Shown piece after piece: positions 4,580-58,021 of a DNA stretch of 64,000 bases. Numbering within the stretch: the stretch's first letter is position 1; every line of letters starts with the position of its first letter. The stretch covers positions 2,496,001-2,560,000 of the forward strand of contig CM000150.2 of NCBI GenBank assembly GCA_000004695.1, read 5' to 3'. The translations under genes and the position numbers were made by a program. The notes under the pieces are model-generated. The model saw only the letters and a program-made list of their open reading frames with translations, made no database searches and was not told where the DNA came from. This DNA comes from Dictyostelium discoideum. Its lineage: Eukaryota.

Positions 4580-5392
4580 TTTTCTATTTATCTTTTTTTT
4601 TTTTTTTTTTTTTTTTCTAAAAATTTTTAATTATAATTATAATTATAATTGTATTGAGTGTTGTTGGGTGTTTAATAATTTTTTTTTTTTAATTTTTTTT
4701 TTTTAAATTAAAAATTATTTATTTATTAATTGTTTTTTTTTTTTTTTAAAAAAAATTTGTTTGTGGTTATATTAATTTTTTATTTGTGAAAAAAAATTAA
4801 AATTTAAAAAATAATTATGTAATTATTTATCATTTATTGATGTCCAAATGATAATTATTTTTATTTATTATAAAATAAAAATTATACGTATAACCTTATT
4901 AATGATCGAATTTAAATCATTCACAATTTTATTTTTCTTTATAATTCTTTTTTTTTTTTTCTATTTTTTATAATTCAAAACAAAAAAAAAAAAAAAAAAA
5001 AAAATATAGATTAAGCAAACCAATGTAGATAATTTTTTATTGTATTTTTTATTTTTTTAATTTCTTTTTTTAATTTCTTTTTTTTTTTTAATTCAAAAGC
5101 CGATTTAAAAAAATATTGTAATTTTTTTATTTGGGCCAACAAAAATACTTTTTTTGTTTCAAGGTTTTTTTTTTTGAATTGGACAACGCAATTTTTTTTA
5201 ATTGGTGTATAACACAATTGCAGGGGCTAAATATAACAAATCTCATCAATGCCAGGATGTGTAAAATTTAAATTTTTTTTCCTATTATTATTAAAAATCA
5301 ATTTTTTTTTTTTGAATTGGATAACGCAATTATTATTTGCTTCTCCTTGAGATGCTAGATCTCATTTTATTTTTTTTTTTTTTTTACAGGGT

Positions 5393-5628
5393 CTTTTTGA
5401 TTAAAACATCTTTTTTGTCCAAACTTTTTTCTAAATCTTTTTTTATTTTATCGTCTGGTTCGTGATTGATGTTTATGACGTATTTGAATTGTTTTTTTTT
5501 TTTTAATTGAGTTTTATCCACAATTTCGCTTATTTTTTGTAGGCATTTGTGTTGCTTAATATTTGTGGTGTTGTTTGTGATTTTCATTTTATTTTCTTTC
5601 TATCTTTTTTATTTTTCTGATTAACTTG

Positions 5629-5686
<58 letters not shown>

Positions 5687-5692
5687 TTATAG
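5393..5692 (-). repeat. second (truncated) copy of the retroelement 5' module with poly(T/A) tract
   Basis: Near-identical to 7122..7456, including the start codon and first 66 codons of ORF1 (ORF 5384..5587). Ends in a run of about 52 T on the + strand, preceded by gattaacttggg. Confidence 0.6.
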
Positions 5693-5982
5693 AAAGTACT
5701 GAGTGAATTATTGTATTTTTTGAGATGTTTAGGAAGTTCTATTGCGGGTGTTGATGATGATTTGTGACACCCCTTGTCCTGTTTTATCAATTGGTGCGTG
5801 GTGTGTTATTTTGTTTTTATATTGTTGATTTATTGAGTAAATTTTATTTGTTTTTATATTTGTTTCAGTTAGAAGTGCTGCGTCCAGCTTGTTGTTGTCT
5901 AAAACGGTGTTTATTATGCTGGCAGATTGGATGGTGTTGGATCCTTGGACGTTCCAAACACCTATTCTTATTGTGTTTTTCT

Positions 5983-7317
5983 TTATAGTTTTATTTGGGG
6001 TAGATTTTTATCTACCTTTTGAAGTTTCTGGTTTATTTTGTCTTCTAACTGATCTTTACTTTGTTCGTTGTGTTGTTGGTCTTGTGTGTTTGTGGGGTTT
6101 TTTGATTTATTGATTTGTTTTAGAATTTCCTTGTTGAAGTTGTCTATATCTTCATCCATTTTTGTTTTTATGCTTTTTTGTCCATATTCACCCAATTTTG
6201 GTTTGACTGGTGTTTTGTTGGTCTTGTTTGTTTTGTCTTGTTGTTTCTTTTTTGGTGTGTTTAACAATTTACTTGGTGAATCGATAATTTTCGATGGTGT
6301 ACCATAGGTTGGGCTGAAACTCATGATATGTTTTATTGGAGAGGAGAAGAACCATTGATTTGAAGGGATTGAAAGTGGGAATTCTATTTTTCTTATTGCA
6401 TCAGTGTTTGGGCTGGTGAAGTCGAAGATATCATTTGCCTCTCTAAGTTTTTCTTCCGTTGTTAGTCCCTTTGTTTCGCCGTGTTGTTTTATTGGTGTAT
6501 TGTATGGAGATGGTGGTTCGATAGGTTTTTCTGATTTTGTTTTAATTTCTTGATTGTTTATCGATTGTGTATTGATCTCATTCTCTATTCTTGTTAGTTC
6601 ATCTACGTTTTCTAGTGATGCTTCTATTACCTTTTGAGCTGTATCATCTAGGGCCATAAATGTTTTATCATTAGATGAGGATGTGATTGGTGGGATAATG
6701 ATTGTTCTTTTTCCTTGTTTTGGTATTTGTTCTGATGTAGATTGTGGTTGTTGTTCATCTGATTGTTTTTTATTTTTGTTTTCTTCTTGATTTTCTGGTA
6801 ATGAGGTTTGATCTCTCCATCCTTTGTTGGAGTGTCCAATTAATGTTAGATTGTCTAGTTCAATGATAGTGTCAAATTCTTCTACGACTCTTTTCACTGT
6901 TTTGATAATTAGAGTTTCGCCTTTAATTTCTGATTTAATTAGTTTACATCCTTCATTTTCTATTACCCATTCTATTTCTGTGAGTGATTTATACCAATCA
7001 AAATCTGTATACATATTTTTTGGTCTTATAGTGGTTATAAATTGTCCTTTTAATTCTGCATCAAACATATTTACAAAATAGATTACTGTACTAATACTGT
7101 CTGTGAGAATTTTGAATGTATTATTACTTTTGATTAAAACATCTTTTTTGTCCAAACTTTTTTCTAAATCTTTTTTTATTTTATCGTCTGGTTCGTGATT
7201 GATGTTTATGACGTATTTGAATTGTTTTTTTTTTAATTGAGTTTTATCCACAATTTCGCTTATTTTTTGTAGGCATTTGTGTTGCTTAATATTTGTGGTG
7301 TTGTTTGTGATTTTCAT
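5983..7317 (-). CDS. retroelement ORF1-like protein (444 aa)
   Basis: Long ORF with moderate complexity (…HSNKGWRDQTSLPENQEENKNKKQSDEQQ…PSPYNTPIKQHGETKGLTTEEKLREANDIFDF…). Its N-terminus lies inside the duplicated module. No RT domain follows; about 290 bp of non-coding sequence, then poly-A. Confidence 0.5.
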   Translation of the reverse strand: MKITNNTTNIKQHKCLQKISEIVDKTQLKKKQFKYVININHEPDDKIKKDLEKSLDKKDVLIKSNNTFKILTDSISTVIYFVNMFDAELKGQFITTIRPKNMYTDFDWYKSLTEIEWVIENEGCKLIKSEIKGETLIIKTVKRVVEEFDTIIELDNLTLIGHSNKGWRDQTSLPENQEENKNKKQSDEQQPQSTSEQIPKQGKRTIIIPPITSSSNDKTFMALDDTAQKVIEASLENVDELTRIENEINTQSINNQEIKTKSEKPIEPPSPYNTPIKQHGETKGLTTEEKLREANDIFDFTSPNTDAIRKIEFPLSIPSNQWFFSSPIKHIMSFSPTYGTPSKIIDSPSKLLNTPKKKQQDKTNKTNKTPVKPKLGEYGQKSIKTKMDEDIDNFNKEILKQINKSKNPTNTQDQQHNEQSKDQLEDKINQKLQKVDKNLPQIKL

Positions 7318-7392
7318 TTTATTTTCTTTCTATCTTTTTTATTTTTCTTTAAAAAGTTAAAAATCTGGAAATTTTCTAATTAACTTGGTTCC

Positions 7393-7456
<64 letters not shown>
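7122..7456 (-). repeat. retroelement 5' module (contains ORF1 start) with long poly(T/A) tract
   Basis: Direct repeat of 5393..5692. Poly-T run 7381..7456 on the + strand. Confidence 0.6.
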
Positions 7457-7458
<2 letters not shown>

Positions 7459-7576
7459 TCTTTTTTATATGAAAAATGAAATAATCAAAAAAAGAGATTG
7501 TTGTTGTTGTTTGTTTTTTTCGATCTCTAATTAATTAATGACCTAATCTAGTAATTAAAATTTATTTATAACAAAT

Positions 7577-7649
7577 GCCCAGATAGCTCAGTCGGTAGAG
7601 CGCAAGGCTTTTAACCTTGTGGTCGGGGGTTCGAGCCCCCCTTTGGGCG
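7577..7649 (+). tRNA. tRNA-Lys (anticodon UUU)
   Basis: GCCCAGATAGCTCAGTCGGTAGAGCGCAAGGCTTTTAACCTTGTGGTCGGGGGTTCGAGCCCCCCTTTGGGCG. Cloverleaf with 7-bp acceptor stem (one G-T pair), D-arm GCTCAGTCGGTAGAGC, anticodon loop CTTTTAA, T-arm GGGGGTTCGAGCCCCCC, discriminator G. No intron. Confidence 0.9.
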
Positions 7650-7663
7650 AATTTTAAAATAAT

Positions 7664-7935
7664 CAACTTTAGATCAAGTGTTCGACTCTGTATATGAAAT
7701 TAAAAAAATGGTCAACTATCCATTTATATTTTAACCGACCAATATTTTCATGCTTGGAGAGATCACTTTTTTTTTTTTAAAATAAAAAAATAGATTAATC
7801 ATTTATCCCTGGAAATAAGCAATAATTAATAGTTTTAATTATATTTATGAGTTTTTAATTTTAAAATATAAATGGTTAGCTGACCATTTTTTAAAGACGT
7901 TTTTACGGATTCGAACACTTGATCTAAAGATATAT
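7664..7935. repeat. imperfect foldback inverted repeat (about 75-bp arms) immediately 3' of tRNA-Lys; each arm carries a B-box-like motif (probable ex-B box region)
   Basis: Arm 7668..7745 versus reverse complement of 7858..7932: ctttagatcaagtgttcgactc / ctttagatcaagtgttcgaatcc and aaaaaaatggtcaactatccatttatatttt / aaaaatggtcagctaaccatttatatttt. GTGTTCGA(C/A)TC resembles the pol III B box GGTTCGANTCC. The first copy sits about 30 bp downstream of the tRNA end, where Dictyostelium tRNA genes typically carry an extra B box. Confidence 0.45.
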
Positions 7936-8109
7936 TTATTTAAATAAATTTTTAAATATAACTTTCAAAGAAATTACATTATTGGTTTTAAATTTAGAAT
8001 TTAAATATATCTTTTTTCATGAAAAATCCAATTCAAAAAAAAATCTTTTTTCATGAAAAAAAATTATTATTTGATTGTAAATTTTGATTTTGATTTAAAA
8101 AATATTGAT

Positions 8110-8699: not shown

Positions 8700-9723
8700 T
8701 TAATTTTGCCTATTTTTTAAGAATATTGGTTTGGTAATTTAAAAACACAATTTTAAAAATATAAATTTCTTACCAATTGTGACCATTTATTTAAATAAAT
8801 AACTCCATTCCATATATAAGGATCACCATCATTCTTTTTTTTAACCAAAATATATTTATTCATTAGACCATCCAATTATTTAAAAGTTTTGATAGTTTCT
8901 TTTGCCAAAATTTTACTCTCAATTACTTCCAACTTAATGACTCCTGTTTTTTTCTCGTCAACCTTTTTTTTGAGGTCTTCAGAATAGAAAGAGGCTGATG
9001 ATACCCTTTTTGCTCCAGAACCTGGAAAAACTGTATTAATGGTTTGAATATTTAAATTACCATTAATAATATACTTTGGAATAATATGAAGTTCTTCTTT
9101 TGACAAAGTTATACAAATTGAATGCTGCGCGTGTTGATTATCTAAAGTCCCTGTACCGTAATTATAAAGAGGATGATATAAGGTTCTGGAGATTTTGGAA
9201 CACTGTGAATTACATGAATTCCCCCTTCTTCATTCCAAATAAAAAATCCTTTTGCATGTGCCTTTTTTAACACATGAAACATATGAAAAAAAAAGAATTA
9301 ACAACAAATTATAATAAAAAAAAAATAAAAATAAAAATTTAAAATTAACACATACACTATTATCTCCACGGGTTGATCATTATAGGTCAAACTATTATAT
9401 ATAGTTTTACCAGAGCTATTTGGATAACTCTGTTTGTATGTTGATGCAATTGGGTTTGGCTCATGCGGATTCCTAATATTATAATAAGCTAATTCATTAA
9501 TCACCCTATTTAATTCATTATCAGTATAAATAGCACCTCTACTGTGACTCAATTGTTCTAAAACCCACCATTCAACATTCTTTTCTATTTTAACTCCATC
9601 TTTATCTATAAACACCTGACTTTTTGTATAAACATTTTTTGTTGTTATACATTTTGGAGGAACACAATAAATTTGTGATATTAATAAAAATAAATATAGA
9701 ACTATTATATATTTATTTTTCAT
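8700..9723 (-). pseudogene. DNase II-like gene, copy 1: 5' remnant (exon 1 plus disrupted exon 2), 3' exon lost
   Basis: Exon 1 (9298..9723) is intact, with signal peptide MKNKYIIVLYLFLLISQIYC and a GTATGT donor. Exon 2 begins AHAKGFFIWNEEGGIHVIHSVP, then frameshifts (…SPEPYIILFIITVQGL*) relative to copy 3. It carries an in-frame TAA where copy 3 has GAA (…KTFK* versus …KTFKELDG). After the exon-2 donor, the sequence diverges from copies 2 and 3 (duplication boundary near 8650-8700). Confidence 0.5.
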
Positions 9724-43899: not shown

Positions 43900-45720
43900 T
43901 TTTTTTATTTCTTAATGCACCATTTTGGTTTTATAGAATTTTAATATACCTTTATGAAGTTGAGTAAATTTTAAATCCTTTTGAATAATTGAATCTAAAA
44001 AATATTTAAAAATTGCTACCCTAGATTTATTTGATAAATCAGACCAATTATCAAAAATGAATTTATAATTTTCAATTGTTAATTTTGATTTTTTAATTAT
44101 TTTATAATATTCTAATTTACCAAGATTGGAATTTCATTTGATTTTATAATTGAAAGTATCCTATTATAAATATGATTTAATGAGTCTTGATAAAGTTGTT
44201 TATGATTTAATTTAAAATGAAATGCTAAAATTGGATTAAAAATTATTTCACTTAAAATATTATCATCACCATCTAATTCAATAATACTTAATAAAAAATC
44301 AAATATTTCAATTGAAATTTCATAAGAAAATGGTGATACATCAAAAGATTTTAAATTAAACATTGGTTTAAAATATTTAATTTTATAAATTAATTTTAAT
44401 AATTCTAAATCTAATTTATAAATACTATAAAGTATTAAATTATTAACTTCTTTTGAAATTTTTAATGAATTATTATTATTATTATTACTATTACTATTAT
44501 TTTCAATTATCCAATTTAATTCTTTAATTCTACTATTTTCAATTTTTCATGATTTCCACAATAATATAATGAATTATTATTATTAAAACTATTAATATTA
44601 ATATTCATAGGTTTTAATTCTGATGATATAATATAATCACCAAATTCTGATTTTTTAAAAATTTTTGATTGATAGTGGATATTGATTATTAAATTTAATA
44701 TTAAAAAATATTAGATTTTCAAGTATAATAGTTGAATCTAAAAATTTATAAACCAATATAAATAATCTCTTTACAATTTCAATATCATTTTTATTTTCAA
44801 TATTAATTATTAATGATCATTAAATTTCATTTCATTTAATTCTTTTTGAATTTTTGGAATTTCTTCAAATTCATTATCAATCTTTGTTAATTTCGAAATT
44901 AATGAATTCTTGGCATTGATTGATATATGATTTTGAAATTGTAATATCAATATTATATTGTATAAATTTTTTAAAACAATCATATAATGAATAAATTAAA
45001 TTTGTTATACCAAATAATGTTTTTAAATTTGTTTCAAATAATTTTAATTCAAATAAACCTAAACCAATTAATTCTTCAGATTTACTTTTACTTGGTTTTA
45101 AAATTTTTAAATCATTTAATAAAAAATTAACTTTTTCAATTAATTTATTAAAATGATCATTATTTCTTTTTTTAAATATAATATCTTTCCAAATTTCATT
45201 ATTTTTTGTTGATTTATTATTATTATTATTTTTTAAATAATTGAAAATAATTTTTGAAATTTCATAAGATCCAATATCAATTGATATTTTAATGATGATA
45301 ATTTTGGTTCTAATTTATAATTTTCAATTAAAATTTTATATAATGATATATTATTATATTTGATTGAAATTTTTTCTAAATATTCAATTGAATTATTAAT
45401 TGTCGTTGTCTTTGTCGTTATTGTTGTAGTTATTAACTGAAATTCATTTGAATAGTTTTTTAATAAATTTAAAAATAATTCTTTATTATTATCAATATCT
45501 TGTTTAAATTGATTAAATATTGAATATTTATAATTATTGATTTTAGTTTCTTCATTATAATAATTTAATTTTGTAAAAGAAAAAACTAAATTTGATTTTC
45601 TTTTAATCTTATCTTTTAATAATCCTAAATGATTATTCTTTATCATCCATTCAACATTTTCAATCTTTTCATAAGAATATGAACACCATCCACTTATTTT
45701 TGATTGTTGTTTAATAAATT
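43900..45720 (-). pseudogene. degenerate multi-frame ORF region (possible pseudogene or intron-rich gene); weak
   Basis: Minus-strand ORFs 45233..45646 and 44112..44363, plus other coding-like stretches (…SGWCSYSYEKIENVEWMIKNNHLG…, …NLKSFDVSPFSYEISIEIFDFLLSIIELDGDDNILSEIIF…), lie in different frames without convincing GT..AG introns between them. Confidence 0.2.
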
Positions 45721-46012
45721 TAAATATTATAAATATATTTTTAAAATAATATTTAAATTATTCATTTGGGTTTAAATTAAAAAAAATAAAAAAAAAAAAA
45801 AAAAAAAAAATTTTCATAAAAACCAAACACCATTTCGCACTCGACCCATTAAAAAAAAAAAAAAAAAATTAATTTAATTTAATCATTCACAGAATTTCGA
45901 AATTAAGATCAAAGTTTTCTAAATTTAATAAAAAAAAAATTAAAAAAAAAATTATTTTAATGATTATATTATTATAATTTTAATAATATAATAAAGTTTA
46001 TTTTTAGAAAAT

Positions 46013-46876
46013 TTAATTTGAACATTGACATAAATTGGAATCAATAGTATGAGAACAAAAATCTCCAATCCATGGATGGAAACATTCACAAACTCCATTA
46101 TTACAAGTACCCATATTAAAACAATTATTAAAACAAAGGTTTGGATCATATAAGAATTGATTAACACCAGTGTATACTAAAACATTATTTGAATTGTAAA
46201 TTTTAATATCTTGATTTCCAGCAAAACCATTTGGACCTTGAGTGACATATCCAATGATTTTATCTGATTGGGTCAAATGAATTTTAACTTTATTTAAACC
46301 AATTTCAAATGAATATTCAGTTTGATCACTTCCAAACCAACCAGTGAGAGTAAAAACACCACCATCTACTGAAACTGGTGTAACAGTAGTAACAAATGGT
46401 AATGCTTCAATATTACAATTTTGACCAGTCCATCCAAGATAACATTGACATGCGCCCATATAAAATTGACCATTACCACAATCTTCAATCAAAGGTCCAT
46501 AGAAATCTTCTTGGAACCATGTTATATTATTTTGTGTAATTTCAACATCATATAATTGGTATAAATTCAATGAATAATCTAAAAAACAACTAACTCTATA
46601 ATAATTTACATTTCTAATTACACAATTATGACCACCAATTGTAATTTCTAAATTGTTATGAGTATCACCAAATAAACCAATAAACTCTATTGTATCAGGT
46701 TCTGGTGGTGCAGCATAATAATAGTTTGAATAATGATTTAAAATTTCACAATTTTCACCAGAATAATGTTCAGGACAACTTGACGAGGATGAAGATGAAG
46801 CAGAGTTTGAGGATTGAGACAAGCATTGATTTGAAAATGTTAAAAAAGCAATAATTAAAGATAATAAAAATTTCAT
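46013..46876 (-). CDS. secreted EGF-like / IPT-domain protein (287 aa), single exon
   Basis: Signal peptide MKFLLSLIIAFLTFSNQCLS, then Ser-rich stretch. EGF-like Cys spacing (CPEHYSGENCE; CGNGQFYMGACQCYLGWTGQNC; CFNNCFNMGTCNNGVCECFHPWIGDFC) flanks a TIG-like beta segment (VTTVTPVSVDGGVFTLTGWFG…). Clean stop. Confidence 0.55.
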   Translation of the reverse strand: MKFLLSLIIAFLTFSNQCLSQSSNSASSSSSSSCPEHYSGENCEILNHYSNYYYAAPPEPDTIEFIGLFGDTHNNLEITIGGHNCVIRNVNYYRVSCFLDYSLNLYQLYDVEITQNNITWFQEDFYGPLIEDCGNGQFYMGACQCYLGWTGQNCNIEALPFVTTVTPVSVDGGVFTLTGWFGSDQTEYSFEIGLNKVKIHLTQSDKIIGYVTQGPNGFAGNQDIKIYNSNNVLVYTGVNQFLYDPNLCFNNCFNMGTCNNGVCECFHPWIGDFCSHTIDSNLCQCSN

Positions 46877-47145
46877 TTTTTTTTTTTATTTATAATAATT
46901 TAATAATTGAAATTGTTTTTTTGAATTGTATTTTTATTTATATTTGTTTAATTTGATTAATATAAAATTTTAAATTATTTTTAATCTATTTATATCTTTT
47001 TTTTTTTTTTCATTGCAACTCAGTTCTGTTATAATTTTAAGAACGAGTTTTATAAGAAATTAATAATTAATTGGAAATTTAAAGTTTATAAAAAATTAAA
47101 ATAATAAAAAAAATCTAGATTCCATCTTTGCATTGGTCCATTTTC

Positions 47146-47191
<46 letters not shown>

Positions 47192-47533
47192 CACCAACTG
47201 ATTAAATTATAATTAAAAACTTGATTGTTAAAAATTCTACAACTCGATTTCCATATCAACACAAATATCTTAAACATCTTTTGTTAATAGAAAATATTAA
47301 AATAAATTAAAAAAAAAAACTTCTTTTGTTAATAGAAAATATTAAAATAAATTAAAAAAAAAAATCAAATTTTATAGTATTTATATAATAGTTTATATTA
47401 ATCACCATTTTGAGTGCACTCACCAATCAAATGATTTTTTGGTAATATCTGAAATAAAATAAAAAAAAATCTGAAGAAATTATTTACATATATTTTTTTT
47501 TATTTTTTTTTTTTTTTTATTAAATTTTAGATT

Positions 47534-47668
47534 TTAAATTAAATCCATTTTACCACCCTCCACTAATGATTTGATTGGTAAATATTTTAAAAAGTAAATT
47601 GAAGTTTTTTTAAAATCAATTGTTTCGCTATACATATTTAAAAAAAATAGAAAATAAAAAATTAATAA

Positions 47669-47699
<31 letters not shown>

Positions 47700-48345
47700 A
47701 CATACTCGTCTACTAAAAAGTCACCTAAATCTTCTCTTGGTTTACAAAATACAAATGTATTTAAAAATGGTCTATTTATACTATTTGAATCCATTTTTTG
47801 AAAATCTTTTGGAATTGAATTTAATAATGTATTTTTAAAATATCCATCCATTAATGCTTTATACCTTGTTTTAAAAATAAAAAATAAAAAAATAAAAATT
47901 AAAAAATTTAGTTTATTATTATTAACTATAATAAATAAGAAAATTATATAAATTATAAATACTTTTGACAATAATTAATTTCAAATTCTGATAATAATTT
48001 ATAACTATCGTATTCATCATTTTCAATTTCTAATAAAATTGAAGAATAGAATTTATCAATTTTCTTTATTCTTTGAACTAAATAACATTTTATAATATAT
48101 TTTAATCTTTCTATTTCCATTTCATATATATTAGCAGTAAATTGAAGATTTATATTAGATATAGCACTTGCACATAATGATTCCTTTTCTTCAATTTTCT
48201 CCATAACTTCTTTAATAATAACATCTTCATAATTTAATAAATTTGGTGCATATTTCTCATTTATCCATGCTTTCTTTAATTTATCTAATAATGATAATTC
48301 TTTATTATTTGTGTTATTAAAATCACCATATTCCCCACTCATCAT
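47534..48345 (-). CDS. gins4: GINS complex subunit Sld5 (GINS4); 3 exons: 47963..48345, 47706..47864, 47534..47627 (211 aa)
   Basis: N-terminus …LLDKLKKAWINEKYAPNLLNYEDVIIKEVMEKIEE… matches the Sld5 A-domain (…AW.NE..AP.LL.Y…). Exon 2 reads KYKALMDGYFKNTLLNSIPKDFQKMD…FCKPREDLGDFLVD. C-terminal …EGGKMDLI* is GINS B-domain-like. Donors are GTATTT and GTATGT; phases are consistent. Confidence 0.65.
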
Positions 48346-48413
48346 TATTCTTTATTCTTTAATATTAGAGTTTATAAAAGAATGGATTAAAAAAAAAAAA
48401 AAAAAATGAAAAA

Positions 48414-48446
<33 letters not shown>

Positions 48447-48680
48447 GCGCTTGTCTTGCGTGTATTGGTGGGAAAAAAAAAAAAAAAAAATAAAGGAATA
48501 ATTGATAATTGAAGGGAACTACTTTTTATTTAATTTAAATAATATTTTAAATGTATAACCTAAATCTCCTTTTCGAACGGGGTTTTTTTTTTTTTTTTGT
48601 TTTATTTCCAATTTGGATTATTTTTTAGTTTTGGTTTTGGTTTTGGATATTTTTTTTTTTTTTTTTTTTTTTTTAATCAA

Positions 48681-49004
48681 TCAAACCCAAATTGCAACAA
48701 CTGCCATACCACTAAATCCTAATAACAATAAAAATGATTTAATTAAAATATCATTACTATCATGACTTAGCTCCTTGGGTATGATCTCTACCACAGCAAC
48801 ATATAAAAAGGTACCACTTGCAATACCCTGAAGTATTGGTGGAACCATTGATCCTGTTACACCTGATCCAACTATAACCATTCCTAATATTGACCCAATA
48901 GGTGAAGTTAAAGAAAATACAAAAACTAATAAAAATAATTTTAAAAATGATCTAAATATAATTATTATTATTATTATATTATTATTTTAAATTTTAATGT
49001 TAGT

Positions 49005-49036
<32 letters not shown>

Positions 49037-50649
49037 AATGATTTATTTATAATTATAAAAAATACATACGGTTTTTCATTTGAACTTGTTATTGTACTTA
49101 TACCTAAAGCAAAAGAAGCTAAAATTTTATGAGCGAAAATTGCAATTAAAATATCGAAAACTCTTATTTCTGAACTTTGTACACCCATTGCTAAACCTTC
49201 AAATAATGAATGAATTGATAACGCTATAACCAATATAAATGGTAATAATATATTACTCTTTTTAGTTACAACTATTATCTCTTGTTGATGAAGATGTTGA
49301 TGTTGATGTTCACCTCCTTTCATATTTTTTATTGAATCTGTTGTCGTATCTTTTATTAAAATTTCACTTTCTATTTTATTATTATTATTATTATTTTCTT
49401 CATTATCATTATAGTCAATATTACTATTACCACCACCACCACCACCACCACCATTATTATTATTATTATTATTACTACCTATATTTCCACTATTACCAAT
49501 ACCACTATTTATTAAAACTATTCTTTCATTATGTACATTTGAATCTGATCCTAAACTATTTCCTCTTGTTCTACCCTCTTGATTATAATCTATATCGTCA
49601 TAGTCAATGATAATGTCAGGTTCTTCATCATCACCATTATAACGGTAACTTAAACTTTTACTACTACTTAAAATTTTATTTGTATTTGGCGTTATATTTG
49701 CACTACTACTATTATTATTACTACTATTATTATTATTACTATTACTATTATCATTACTACAAGTAGTTGTTGTTGTAGTAATAAACGGATGATAATTTAC
49801 ACTACTAGATGGATAGTGGTGTACACTATTATTACTTGTTGTACTGATTGGTTGTATAATTATTTCTGTTCTAAAATTATTATTATTATTATTATTGTTG
49901 TTTTTGTTATTATTATTGTTATTGTTATTATTATTGTTATTATTATTTGAGAAACCACCTACACCACTACCACTTTTATCAATATCAATATGACTACCAA
50001 TAATTCCTTTATATTTATTTTGATTATAATAATAACTATTACTACTATCAAGCAATCTTTGTTTTTCACTAATTTTAGTTGATGATGATGTTGATGATGT
50101 TGATGTTGATGAAAAGGTTGGTATTGTATCTATAAATTTTCTAAATTTTGTTCTTGCACATTTTGATTGTTTCTTTTTATATATTTGTTCATCATCATTC
50201 TCATCATAATCATCTGGAATTATTATTTCATCCATTATATCTTTTTCTTCATCTTCATCTTCATCTTCAAGTACTATTTCTTTTGCTGTTGCTGCTGTTG
50301 TTGCTGTTGTTGTTGTCGTTGTTGTTGTTGTTCCTTCTGATGGTGTTGTTGGTGTTATTGTTGGTGATGTTGTTTTATTTTTTTTAGAATTTAAAGCACC
50401 TACACTCCCCATTCCAATACCAACACCTGATCCTGGATTACCATTACTACCATTATCTTTCCCATGATGTGAATGGCCATGTGATAAATGTACATGACTA
50501 TGACTATGTCCATGTAATGAGGCAAATGTATTACTCTTTATAAATATTGAATTTATTATTAATTCTAAAAATAATGTAATTAAAAATCCAACACATAAAC
50601 AAAGTGCTCTATATTTTATGTATGATATTAATATACTTTAATAACTATA

Positions 50650-50682
<33 letters not shown>

Positions 50683-50835
50683 TTAAATAATAATACATAC
50701 GCAAATGGATAATTGTATTTTTGGACATATGGTTGTAGATCTTCATCAGCTGTTGCAAATAAATGTAACATACCTGCTCCAAAAAATACACCTCCTGTTT
50801 TAATCATTTTATTACTATTAGTAAATTTTTAAAAG

Positions 50836-50870
<35 letters not shown>

Positions 50871-51056
50871 GAGATAATAAAAAAAATAAAAAAATAGTTT
50901 ATATTTACCAGCAAATGTATTACTCCACGATAAATATCTTGAGCTATTATTTAAATTTCTCATCCAATATGGAGCTATTCCTGCTAATAAACTTAGTATA
51001 AACAATACAGTAGTTGATATTATTTTAATATCTAATACTGATAATGAAATACCCAT
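48681..51056 (-). CDS. ZIP (Zrt/Irt-like) family zinc/metal transporter; 4 exons: 50909..51056, 50701..50794, 49070..50635, 48681..48951 (about 692 aa)
   Basis: TM segments with ZIP signatures: …SNTFAGGVFFGAGMLHLFATADEDL…, …ALCLCVGFLITLFLELIINSIF…, His-rich loop HGHSHSHVHLSHGHSHHG. C-terminal …HSLFEGLAMGVQSSE… and …GTFLYVAVVEIIPKEL…GFSGMAVVAIWV*. A large poly-N/T-rich cytoplasmic loop sits in exon 3. Splice junctions were resolved by hand and are phase-consistent. Confidence 0.65.
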
Positions 51057-51739
51057 TTTATATAATATATATAATATATATTATATATTAAAAAAAAAAA
51101 AAAAAAAACTATTTTTTATTGCACAAAAAAAAAAATGTAGACCAAAGTTTTTTTTTTTTTTTTGGAATTTTCTTTTTTTTTTTTTTTTTTATTTTTTAAT
51201 TTATTTTTTTTTTATTTTTTTTTTTTGGGTTGATATCAAACAACTTTAAAAAATAAAAAAAATTAAAAAATGAAATAAATAAAAATAGAAAATTAAAATT
51301 TTAATAAGTTTAAAAAATACAATATTAATAAGCGAATATAATATCTAAATATTTAAGATTTAAAATCACCACACATTAATTTTTGTCTTTTTTTTTTTTT
51401 TTTTTTTGTTTTTTTAATTATTTTTATTTATTTTTTATTTTTTTTTTTTTGGTTATTCTTACAAATAGTAGTTTATGCCTATAAATAATTAAAAAATGGT
51501 TTATTTCTCTTTAAAACAAAAAAAAAAACAAAAAAAAAAAAATGTATATACAAATTCATTATAATTATTATAAAATTTAAATAATAATAGAAAAAAGAAG
51601 TATTTTCTAGAAAAAAAAAAAAAAAAAAAAAAAAAATAATATTTCATTAAATTTTTGATTATTGATTGTTTTGGCTTAAGTTTAATTTTTTGATTTGTTT
51701 TATATTTTTTATCCCTATTTGGGTTTCGTTAGAAAGTGT

Positions 51740-51782
<43 letters not shown>

Positions 51783-52106
51783 TTTTGGGACTTTTTCTTT
51801 GTAAAATAATACAAAATAACTTTTTGTGGAGGTTGCCAAAGTTTTTCAGACTTTTTTTTTTTTTTATTTTTTTTTTTTTTTTTTTTTATTTTCAATTTTT
51901 TTTTTTTTTTAATAATTTTTTTTTTTTGATAACTAATTTGGTCAACTATTATCACATATATTTTTTTTTTTTTTTTAATTTTTTTTTTTTTTTTATTGTT
52001 ATAATTAATAATAATAATAACAATAATAATAGTAATAATTAACACCAATTATTAAAAAAAAAAAAAAAAATTAAAAAATAAAAAAAATAAAATTAAAAAC
52101 AAAATA

Positions 52107-52156
<50 letters not shown>

Positions 52157-52312
52157 CAATTGGTTTTAAATTTAAAAGAGAATAAATAATTTATAACATA
52201 TTTAAATATATTTTTTTTAAAAAAAAAAAAAAACAATTCAATGAAAAATTATTTAATATTCTTATAATAATAAAGTAATAATAATAATAATAATAAAAAA
52301 ACAAATAATAAT

Positions 52313-55992
<3,680 letters not shown>

Positions 55993-56985
55993 AAATAATA
56001 ATATTAATAATAATAAAAAACAAACAAACAAATAAATTTATTTAATTTAATTTATATTTTATTTTAAATTTTTTATTTTATTATTTATTATTTAATATTT
56101 AAAAAACTATTATTAATTTAGAATAAATTTTGGATTTAATATTTCAAATGTAACTGGCTGCAATCAAATATATATGAAAAAGGTTTATCAATTTCAATAT
56201 CATAATCAATTAAACTACAATTCAAATATCAATAATTTTTTGCAACTTGTACTTCCGATTAATAAATATTCAATAATTATACAAAATTATAATTTTTATT
56301 TTTTTTATTATATTTTTATATTTTATTTAATTAAATCTAAAAATATAAAACTAGCAATTTTTTTTTATTTAATTTTTTTTTTTTTTTTTTTAAATTTAAA
56401 ATTATATTTAATTTCCTGGAAATTAATGATGAATTATGTAAATAAAATGTTTTAAAACATTTTATTTTATTCATTATGTTTTTTTTATTTTATTTTTTTT
56501 TTGGAAAAATTAAAAATATTATTTTACAAATAGATCTCCCAATAAAAAAAAAATTAAAAAAAAATTAAAAATAAAAAAAAATTAAAAAAGGGATACTTTT
56601 ACATTCTAAATAATTAATTAGATAAAAATAAAAAAAACACAATTTATTTAGATTTTAAAATTAATTAATTATTAAAATTTAAAAAAAAAAAAACAAAAAA
56701 AAAAAAACAAAAGTGTTAATTTTTTTTTTAATTTAAAAATAAAAAAAAAAAAAAAAAAAGTGCCTTTTTTTAATAATTAATTTTGAAAAATTTTAATAAT
56801 TTATTTTTTCGATATAATAAAAAAACATAACAAATAATTTATTTATTCATTTTTTTTTTTTTTTTCAGTAAACACTTTTTTTTTTTTTATTTTTTATTTT
56901 TTATTTTTTTTTTATAATCTAATTAAAATATTATTAAATATAAATATAAATAAAAAATAAAAAATAAAAAATAAAAAATAATAAA

Positions 56986-58021
56986 ATGATAACAAATTTA
57001 ATTAATAAATATTTAATATCAACAAGATCATATTTATCAAGTGGTATTTTATTTATACTTTTAATATCAAGTTCAATAGCATATAGACAAACAAAACAAA
57101 TTGATATATGGTTTAGTTTATTTTGTTTTACAATTATATTTCAAAATTTTTGTTTTGCATATTTATTAAATTCATATTTAGATTATTTAACTGGATCAGA
57201 TTATGTAAAGAGTGAAATGGATAGAACACTATTCAAACATATAACATTGGGTCAATTGAGGGGATTCATAAAGATACCTTTGATTTTAAATGTACTACTT
57301 TTAATAATAACTTATAGATGGAAAGGGTTAAACACATTGTTAATGATTGCATTTTTAGATTTCTTACAAATTATTGGGGTTTGCATTTACTCACCATCAA
57401 AACACTATGCTATGGGTCATTTGGTTTTTAGCTTTGTACATTATATTAATATTTGGATTTTCTATTATTCAAATACTAAACAATTTCCATCATTCAATTC
57501 TTCCGATCCTTTCATTTATTATAGTTTTTATTTTTTACCTGTAATTCTTCAATCAATTCATGCAAATTATCATAGAGATATTGAAAATGATAAAAAATCT
57601 GGTATTTTAACAATTGCAATCTTATTAGGTAAAAAGTTTTCTTTAGTTTATTATTTTTTATTATATATTGGTAAGTAAAATTTTTATTTTAATAAAAAAT
57701 TATTTGATCAAAAAAAAAAATAAAAAATAAAAAAAAAAAAAAAAAAAAAAAACACATCCCCAATTCTCCACATACTCTCCCCCCACACGCACTAACCCCT
57801 TTTTTTTTATTTTTATTTTTTTTTTTATAGGTGGTTTGATTTATTTAATATTTTTAATGATAAAATTTAATAATATTTTCTTTTTATTACCATTTGCAAC
57901 CATATCATTAATTAATGAACTATATGGAAATATCGATTTATTAAATGTTCAAACAACTAAAATTCATTTTTTTTCTTTATTTTTATTTTCAATAGCAATT
58001 TTATTGGGTGGTAAAAAATAA
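56986..58021 (+). CDS. UbiA prenyltransferase-family-like polytopic membrane protein; exons 56986..57670, 57831..58021 (about 291 aa)
   Basis: Multiple TM helices. HANYHRDIENDKKSGILTIAILLG resembles the second Asp-rich motif of UbiA/MenA-type prenyltransferases (N..RDI..D...GK.TL...LG). A degenerate first motif is possible at LDYLTGSDYVKSEMDRT. GTAAGT donor and ttttttatag acceptor. Confidence 0.4.

Follow-up and report, generated by a model that had tools for sequence, protein, structure and literature searches.

A 64,000-nucleotide (nt) stretch of the Dictyostelium discoideum genome (GenBank assembly GCA_000004695.1, contig CM000150.2, positions 2,496,001 to 2,560,000 of the forward strand; referred to below as the window, with positions counted from its first letter) raises the question of why the beginning of an open reading frame (ORF), together with its leader and a preceding run of A, is found twice next to the same tRNA-Lys gene. 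The minus-strand block, consisting of poly(A), CC..AAGTTAAT, the leader and about 64 codons of ORF1, is present at 7455..7128 and again at 5684..5395. Pairwise alignment, as well as a repeat finder (families D8 and D10), gives 99-100% identity between positions 7128-7348 and 5395-5618 (minus), and a repeat of 220 nt at this level of identity is far beyond chance. We are confident that the region 7527..5302 (minus) is one copy of TRE5-A.2, a non-autonomous deletion derivative of the TRE5-A retrotransposon, which belongs to the class lacking long terminal repeats (non-LTR). The duplicated unit is the B-module of this family; its duplication arose once in a TRE5-A ancestor and was inherited by all copies.

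Both TRE5-A.2 and its B-module duplication are already described. The finding carries little weight as a discovery, since they have been known since the early 1990s, and the element serves as an experimental retrotransposition system. Its value lies in annotation: the true bounds of the element are 7527..5302, the poly(A) tracts inside it belong to its standard structure and are not tails of separate insertions, and the copy is flagged as one without a complete A-module and without an exact target-site duplication (TSD).

The homopolymeric A run and CC(C)AAGTTAAT precede both copies of the block, with A59 at 7455..7397 and A54 at 5684..5631. Absent from the 3' copy are 7 nt (TGGGAAC) and a 28-nt segment (in the region 7380..7350) of the 5' copy, and a 3-nt difference within an A run also separates the two. 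The duplicated unit that the first-pass annotation had placed at 7122..7456 and 5393..5692 (minus) is real, with coordinates correct to within a few bases. Its extent in codons needs a small correction: the start of ORF1 is indeed duplicated, as claimed, although the shared coding stretch comprises about 64 codons and not the first 66. The 3' copy yields a mini-ORF of 67 amino acids at 5384..5587(-), which repeats the N terminus of ORF1 and stops shortly after entering the C-module remnant. The ORF1-start motif also occurs in the 3' B-module of nine of nine other TRE5-A.2 copies.

Anatomy and assignment of the element

A search for the ORF1 product of 444 amino acids located the identical protein on 11 contigs read from a D. 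discoideum assembly. The nine loci taken for comparison are L001-L009; L003 also supplies a full-length TRE5-A.1, the autonomous relative. Two further loci, L011 and L012, carry TRE5-B-like and TRE5-C-like elements, respectively, an assignment inferred from the absence or presence of a C-module; L011 is at the same time the ortholog of the tRNA-Lys locus described here. The features of the locus, read from the tRNA gene toward the 3' end of the element, are the following.

7576..7650, plus strand: tRNA-Lys(UUU), the integration target (found with ARAGORN; ortholog at L011 1390-1464)
7528..7575, no strand: 48-nt spacer from the element 5' end to the tRNA gene, terminating in GGTCATTAATTAATTA (from the sequence; the spacing in L011 is also 48 nt)
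7456..7527, minus strand: element 5' end, an extra G followed by the first ~71 nt of the A-module (AGATCGAAAAAAACAAAC...AAAAGACTT), which align with the start of the 199-bp A units of L001
7397..7455, minus strand: internal poly(A), 59 nt, linking the partial A unit to the 5' B-module
7107..7396, minus strand: 5' B-module, 290 nt, beginning CCTGGGAACCAAGTTAAT, comprising a leader stretch of 79 nt and the ATG of ORF1 at 7317
5983..7317, minus strand: ORF1, 444 amino acids, intact (from the ORF list)
5746..6007, minus strand: remnant of the ORF2 N terminus, 87 codons, overlapping the ORF1 stop, with endonuclease-like IGVWNVQG...LLTETN
5685..5745, minus strand: final ~21 codons of ORF2, no longer in frame, and a short 3' untranslated region (UTR) ending ...TTTCTATAAATA (the L003 4897-4960 region)
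5631..5684, minus strand: internal poly(A), 54 nt, ahead of the 3' B-module
5395..5630, minus strand: 3' B-module (CCCAAGTTAATCAG...), lacking the 7 nt and 28 nt whose loss is specific to TRE5-A.2, and shortened by the B/C deletion
5314..5394, minus strand: C-module remnant, 81 nt, with hairpins (needed for retrotransposition); 70 nt are absent compared to the TRE5-A.1 of L003
5302..5313, minus strand: A12 tail, the element 3' end
5165..5201, minus strand: outside the element, probable older TRE5 remnant, the last ~20-25 nt of a C-module (AATTGCGTTGTCCAATTC) and A11 (repeat family D16)

The extent of the B-module was taken as the limit of similarity between the 5' and 3' regions of the full-length TRE5-A.1, where L003 4955-5294 corresponds to window 7444-7107. 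Bounds of 5390-7460, as proposed originally, are too small, and the 72-nt A-module stub, the C-module and the A12 tail have to be added (the A tails of other TRE5-A.2 copies have 10-27 A). The accompanying description of an element with ORF1 and essentially no ORF2 is accurate: ORF1 is intact, while the 87-codon ORF2 remnant ends at the deletion junction between 5746 and 5745 and is followed by a stop, so that no intact ORF2 comes after ORF1. Approximately 3134 bp of TRE5-A.1 (L003 1764-4896) are missing from the window element.

This architecture can be compared with the published one. TRE5-A.2 (formerly DRE) is organized as AB-ORF1-BC (Marschalek et al. 1992; Beck et al. 2002; Siol et al. 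2011, PMC3159450), and TRE5-A.1 as AB-ORF1/ORF2-BC, with an A-module of 200 bp, a B-module of 290 bp and a C-module of 134-137 bp (PMC3159450). The published B-module defines the start of ORF1 and is repeated in the 3' UTR (PMC3159450), a duplication that sets TRE5-A apart from all other TREs (PMC5006619). TRE5-A.2 is distinguished by a large deletion of ORF2 and a 72-bp deletion at the BC boundary, which leaves 87 bp of C (PMC3159450). The modules measured here have closely similar sizes (A unit 199 bp, B 290 nt at 7396..7107, C region of L003 135 nt), and both markers of TRE5-A.2 are present, as the ~3134-bp loss from ORF2 and a B/C deletion of 70 nt. Published residues are matched as well, namely I10 of ORF1 and T15, C26, A35, and C38 of the C-module. 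The last four, numbered backward from the base that precedes the tail, all fall within the two stems predicted for the terminal 54 nt (minimum free energy -11.3 kcal/mol, z = -3.1). TRE5-A integrates 46-49 bp upstream of tRNA genes (PMC3159450), under a strict orientation rule by which the element's 5' end points toward the tRNA gene (PMC5391098); the 48-nt spacer and the head-to-head arrangement with tRNA-Lys agree with this placement. It follows that the proposal of a non-autonomous TRE5 derivative upstream of a tRNA gene is borne out, and more specifically for TRE5-A.2. The suggested likeness to the tandem A-module arrangement does not hold, since the repeated unit is the B-module, whose duplication from the 5' UTR into the 3' UTR defines TRE5-A (PMC3159450, PMC5006619).

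The GC content of the window is 14-31%, and the ORF1 product is 99% identical to several proteins of D. discoideum AX4. No similarity was detected between the window ORF1 and the ORF1 of either the TRE5-B-like or the TRE5-C-like element (E >= 0.58); these families lack a 3' B-module and have a different ORF1, whereas the window element has a 3' B-module. A Pfam search of ORF1 returned no domain, with a lone sub-threshold match to SEP (E = 0.52). Exact look-up gave no record for protein P0001, while that of the window ORF1 found a match. Primer sequences for endogenous TRE5-A, as an independent test of identity, were not found in the papers searched.

Recurrence of the unit in other loci

At about 98% identity, the complete 2.2-kb unit has colinear counterparts in at least nine other copies of a D. 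discoideum assembly. The region 7526..5302 aligns by BLAST as one colinear block of ~2225 nt, at ~98% identity, in L001, L002, L003 and L009, and in L008 the block begins at window 7422. The junction consisting of the 3' UTR, a poly(A) of 32-42 nt, and CCCAAGTTAATCAG is found in all nine other loci, as is the C-module end with its A tail. At the opposite side, a partial A unit, a poly(A) of 31-42 nt, and CCTGGGAACCAAGTTAATTAG follow each other in each of the eight loci that have an intact 5' end. Exact TSDs of 13-15 nt enclose the entire unit in six of the nine other copies. Other copies lie ~50 nt (48-50 nt) upstream of genes for tRNA-His, Val, Ser, Ala, and Gly, and the search for the same unit beside other tRNA genes, which had been proposed as a check, is thereby answered in the affirmative. 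BLAST of the flanks of the window element (4900-5320 and 7520-8000) against L001-L009 gave no match, and these flanks are therefore unique to the tRNA-Lys locus, with the exception of its ortholog L011.

The relation to an autonomous element is seen in L002 and L003, where the same ORF1 precedes an ORF2 of 1047 amino acids that contains a reverse transcriptase domain (RVT_1, E = 2.4e-33). This ORF2 frame extends without a stop 25 nt back into ORF1, and it starts with the endonuclease-like IGVWNVQG...LLTETN. The family is therefore that of a two-ORF element resembling long interspersed nuclear elements (LINEs), and the window element is a deleted version of it. The nine near-identical copies, which share all four deletions and six of which have their own TSDs, would fit a single origin followed by mobilization in trans.

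The A unit is a tandem repeat of 199 bp, as seen in L001. Long arrays of it are found at the 5' ends of TRE5-A.2 copies, with 22 units in L006 (1628-5870) and nine units each in L001 (4226-5909) and in L007 (4217-5870), the final partial unit being included in these counts.

The poly(A) located 5' of the B-module, which had been regarded as atypical, is a regular component: the tract is present in every TRE5-A copy examined that has an intact 5' end, and also in the TRE5-B-like and TRE5-C-like elements. The 5' layout of the latter two (L011 and L012) comprises A-like units, a partial unit ending with ...CATAT or ...GACTT, a poly(A) of ~33 nt, a leader starting with CCT..., and the ATG.

Peculiarities of the tRNA-Lys copy and competing explanations

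Several observations weigh against the assignment to TRE5-A.2, or at least do not sit easily with it. The only database name of the ORF1 product is 'hypothetical protein', and the identity as TRE5-A rests on published descriptions rather than on a named database sequence. The C remnant has 81 nt compared to the published 87, and the B/C deletion comprises 70 compared to 72. Other full-length copies have 1-21 complete A units ahead of the same partial unit, whereas the window copy has none (0). Finally, no exact TSD was found at 7528+/5301-, although one is present in six other copies; a check for TSDs around the element ends, as originally recommended, is in this respect negative. Differences in the length of A runs could explain the mismatches of 81 versus 87 and 70 versus 72. 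A shortened 5' end bears on activity and not on membership, and copies shortened in this way still count as TRE5-A; similarly, a TSD is a trace that integration leaves and that may disappear, and the family is not defined by it.

The A-module of the window copy is limited to the first ~71 nt of the 199-bp unit (7526..7456), starting at its canonical first base, with no complete unit present. Its start, G + AGATCG, is the same as that of the first unit in L005, L006 and L009, where GAGATCG directly follows the TSDs, and the presence of an additional G, derived from the cap, has been published for full-length TRE5-A integrations (PMC3159450). This start suggests that the copy is the cDNA of an RNA initiated at the last, partial A unit, rather than the product of a random 5' truncation. 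If this is true, transcription starts at internal A units would yield daughter copies without a promoter and a variable number of A units, of which 0-21 complete ones are seen. Since it has no complete 199-bp A unit, the copy may be ill suited to generating new ones; judged by the stub, it may lack promoter activity, its ORF1 being intact nonetheless.

A comparison of the flanks of the element shows that the 5' flank (...GGTCATTAATTAATTA) and the 3' flank (TTGATTTTTAATAAT...) match in 7 of 11 positions. In the ortholog L011 (GCA_054859355.1), positions 494-1132 correspond to window 8697-8053 at 92.8% identity, and 1345-1609 to window 7694-7434. The spacer of L011 ends with GGTCATTGATTTTTAA, the last 11 nt of which are identical to the first 11 nt of the window 3' flank (TTGATTTTTAA), while the end of the window spacer itself differs. 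The 3' flank is therefore the expected target sequence, and the copy on the 5' side is the one that deviates. Possible reasons for the missing TSD are recombination of successive insertions, alteration of the target site at integration, or a problem of assembly.

Recombination would mean that two successive TRE5-A insertions at tRNA-Lys later recombined or underwent gene conversion, with the 5' flank now deriving from one element and the 3' flank from the second. We regard this as possible but doubtful. It would account for the lack of an exact TSD in a family in which perfect ones of 13-15 nt are retained by six of nine other copies, and for a 3' flank that equals the end of the L011 spacer when the copy's own spacer end does not; repeated insertion at one tRNA gene is common (four C-module ends in L003 share one flank, and L011 has two remnants), and here an older C-module end is found 138 nt farther out. 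However, no internal breakpoint is visible in the element, which is colinear with other TRE5-A.2 copies, the spacer has the canonical 48 nt, and a target-site deletion during target-primed reverse transcription, or fast drift of an AT-rich spacer, could have erased the TSD equally well. The same oddities could stem from an assembly artefact, either a collapsed array of 199-bp A units or consensus sequence put in place of a repeat, which we consider quite improbable. Arrays of 9-22 A units and homopolymers are indeed hard to assemble, and the poly(A) tracts of the window (59 and 54 nt) exceed those of any of the nine copies in the other assembly (31-42 nt), but the clean 5' end, G + AGATCG at exactly -48, resembles genuine full-length ends, and no join is signalled within the sequence itself. 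Both explanations address only oddities at the level of this copy; if recombination did occur, it would refine the history of the copy and leave the identity of the element unchanged.

Explanations that do question this identity fare much worse. Two nested or tandem TRE5 insertions, a full element and a second one truncated after 66 codons, had been envisaged at first, and it is true that tandem TRE5-A arrays exist at other tRNA genes (L002, L003) and that a poly(A) abutting the 5' sequence of an element resembles a tail next to a newly inserted one. We nevertheless find this reading highly implausible, as it is contradicted by the recurrence of the whole as one unit in nine other loci: the same poly(A)/B junction, end-point of B, and C-module are found in all nine, in six of them within enclosing TSDs. 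Moreover, there is no spacer of ~48 nt or TSD between the poly(A) and the second B-module, as successive insertions at -48 would need, whereas the genuine tandems (L003, L011) retain repeated copies of the target, and the arrangement is published as a single element (PMC3159450). The idea of a processed retrocopy of a host gene, or of a segmental repeat unrelated to retroelements, has a negligible chance of being correct. An ORF1 that has no Pfam domain and is named 'hypothetical protein', as well as an AATAAA-like motif ahead of the internal poly(A), could be quoted in its favor, yet the same ORF overlaps the endonuclease/reverse transcriptase ORF2 in full-length copies, and copies lie 48-50 nt upstream of different tRNA genes, six with TSDs; D. 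discoideum is, in addition, described as having no processed pseudogenes (PMC3159450). This reading was rejected on account of the ORF linked to reverse transcriptase and of the tRNA-adjacent copies with TSDs. TRE5-A.2 is the assignment that we retain.

The tRNA-Lys(UUU) locus has received other insertions. In L011 (1390-7600), a TRE5-B-like element, with an ORF2 that is 53% identical, occupies the identical -48 position, so that the same locus is filled by different TRE5 families in different strains. Farther on in L011, at 9240-9560, there are two C-module remnants, one of TRE5-C type and one of TRE5-A type, each preceding a target copy, G(G)TCATT(G/A)ATTTTT(T)AA. The segment 5165..5201 of the window probably stems from an earlier TRE5 insertion at this tRNA gene, one with an extreme 5' truncation, and lies 138 nt past the tail of TRE5-A.2; beyond its last ~25 nt, the region 5165-5301 has no match to the 3' ends of TRE5-A, the TRE5-C-like element or the element of Dictyostelium cf. 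discoideum. Directly downstream of tRNA-Lys, an imperfect inverted duplication spans 7651-7945, with arms 7651-7692/7904-7945 (79%) and 7700-7734/7861-7895 (91%); the outer arms contain sequences resembling an external B box, GTTCGA(C/A)TC, at 7680-7688 (+) and ~7912-7920 (-). The stretch 7695-8052 does not align with L011. Far from the element, at 44001-58000, the GC content in 2-kb windows is 14-20%, compared to 23-31% over most of the remaining window.

Origin of the B-module duplication and relation to known systems

Comparison of the families at their 3' ends provides a modest, testable idea on the origin of the B duplication. In the TRE5-C-like element, ORF2 is followed by A66 and the C core, whereas in TRE5-A.1 the order is ORF2, A40, B, GAAAC, A22 and C core, which places the B copy within an internal A tract that already existed. 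A duplication in which the 5' and 3' A tracts served as sites of template switching by the reverse transcriptase, or of unequal exchange or recombination, would fit this layout. Tentatively, the poly(A) tracts on either side of the B-module might be fossil junctions of the duplication; the idea of transcription starts at internal A units is a separate one and equally tentative. In Dictyostelium cf. discoideum, a TRE5-A-like element is found at L010 (7366-12171), with 83% nucleotide identity and an ORF1 that is 67.5% identical. A search of L010 for a 3' B duplication detected none in this single, 5'-truncated copy, where ORF2 is followed by A16, CCTGGCAATC and a C-like sequence. A tRNA-like sequence that is not called by ARAGORN lies at ~6800-6870 of L010.

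The mechanism by which the window copy would have been mobilized can be proposed from the literature. The A-module promoter would drive synthesis of the sense RNA (PMC3159450, PMC5391098). The ORF1 protein would then bind TFIIIB on the tRNA gene, directing integration to ~48 bp upstream with the element oriented so that its 5' end faces the tRNA; the TRE5-A ORF1 protein is reported to bind TFIIIB, and mobilization needs TFIIIC/TFIIIB on the target (PMC3159450, PMC5006619). Endonuclease and reverse transcriptase would come in trans from the TRE5-A.1 ORF2 protein, which is proposed to recognize the C-module hairpin and to copy the RNA by target-primed reverse transcription. The C-module hairpin has been found to be essential, and integration proceeds by target-primed reverse transcription (PMC3159450, PMC5391098).

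Among known systems, the window copy is closest to TRE5-A.2 itself, with which it shares the order of modules, the repeated 290-nt B-module, the loss of ORF2, the ~72-bp B/C deletion, the C hairpin and the oligo(A) tail; it differs in its A stub of ~71 nt, in having no exact TSD, and in its longer internal poly(A) tracts (59 and 54 versus 31-42 nt). The autonomous TRE5-A.1 (~5.6 kb) has the same A, B, ORF1 and C, with 97% identity over window 7526..5746, and the same poly(A) tracts flanking its B-modules. Unlike the window element, it includes a 3.1-kb ORF2 that encodes an APE-like endonuclease and a reverse transcriptase, as well as the full 135-nt C region with A22, and its 3' B-module does not have the 7-nt and 28-nt losses of TRE5-A.2. 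The TRE5-B-like and TRE5-C-like elements share with TRE5-A the targeting to ~-48 of tRNA genes, the 5' layout, and A-like units of 190-200 nt, and their ORF2 is 53-58% identical; the C-module of the TRE5-C-like element is related to that of TRE5-A. They differ in having no 3' B-module and in an ORF1 that is unrelated to that of the window. Outside the TREs, non-autonomous derivatives of LINEs, such as ORF2-deleted L1 and I-element copies or short interspersed nuclear elements (SINEs) with the 3' end of a LINE, likewise rely on the reverse transcriptase and endonuclease of a partner that recognizes a shared 3' end. In contrast to those, TRE5-A.2 has an intact, cis-preferred ORF1 that supplies the choice of target (PMC3159450).

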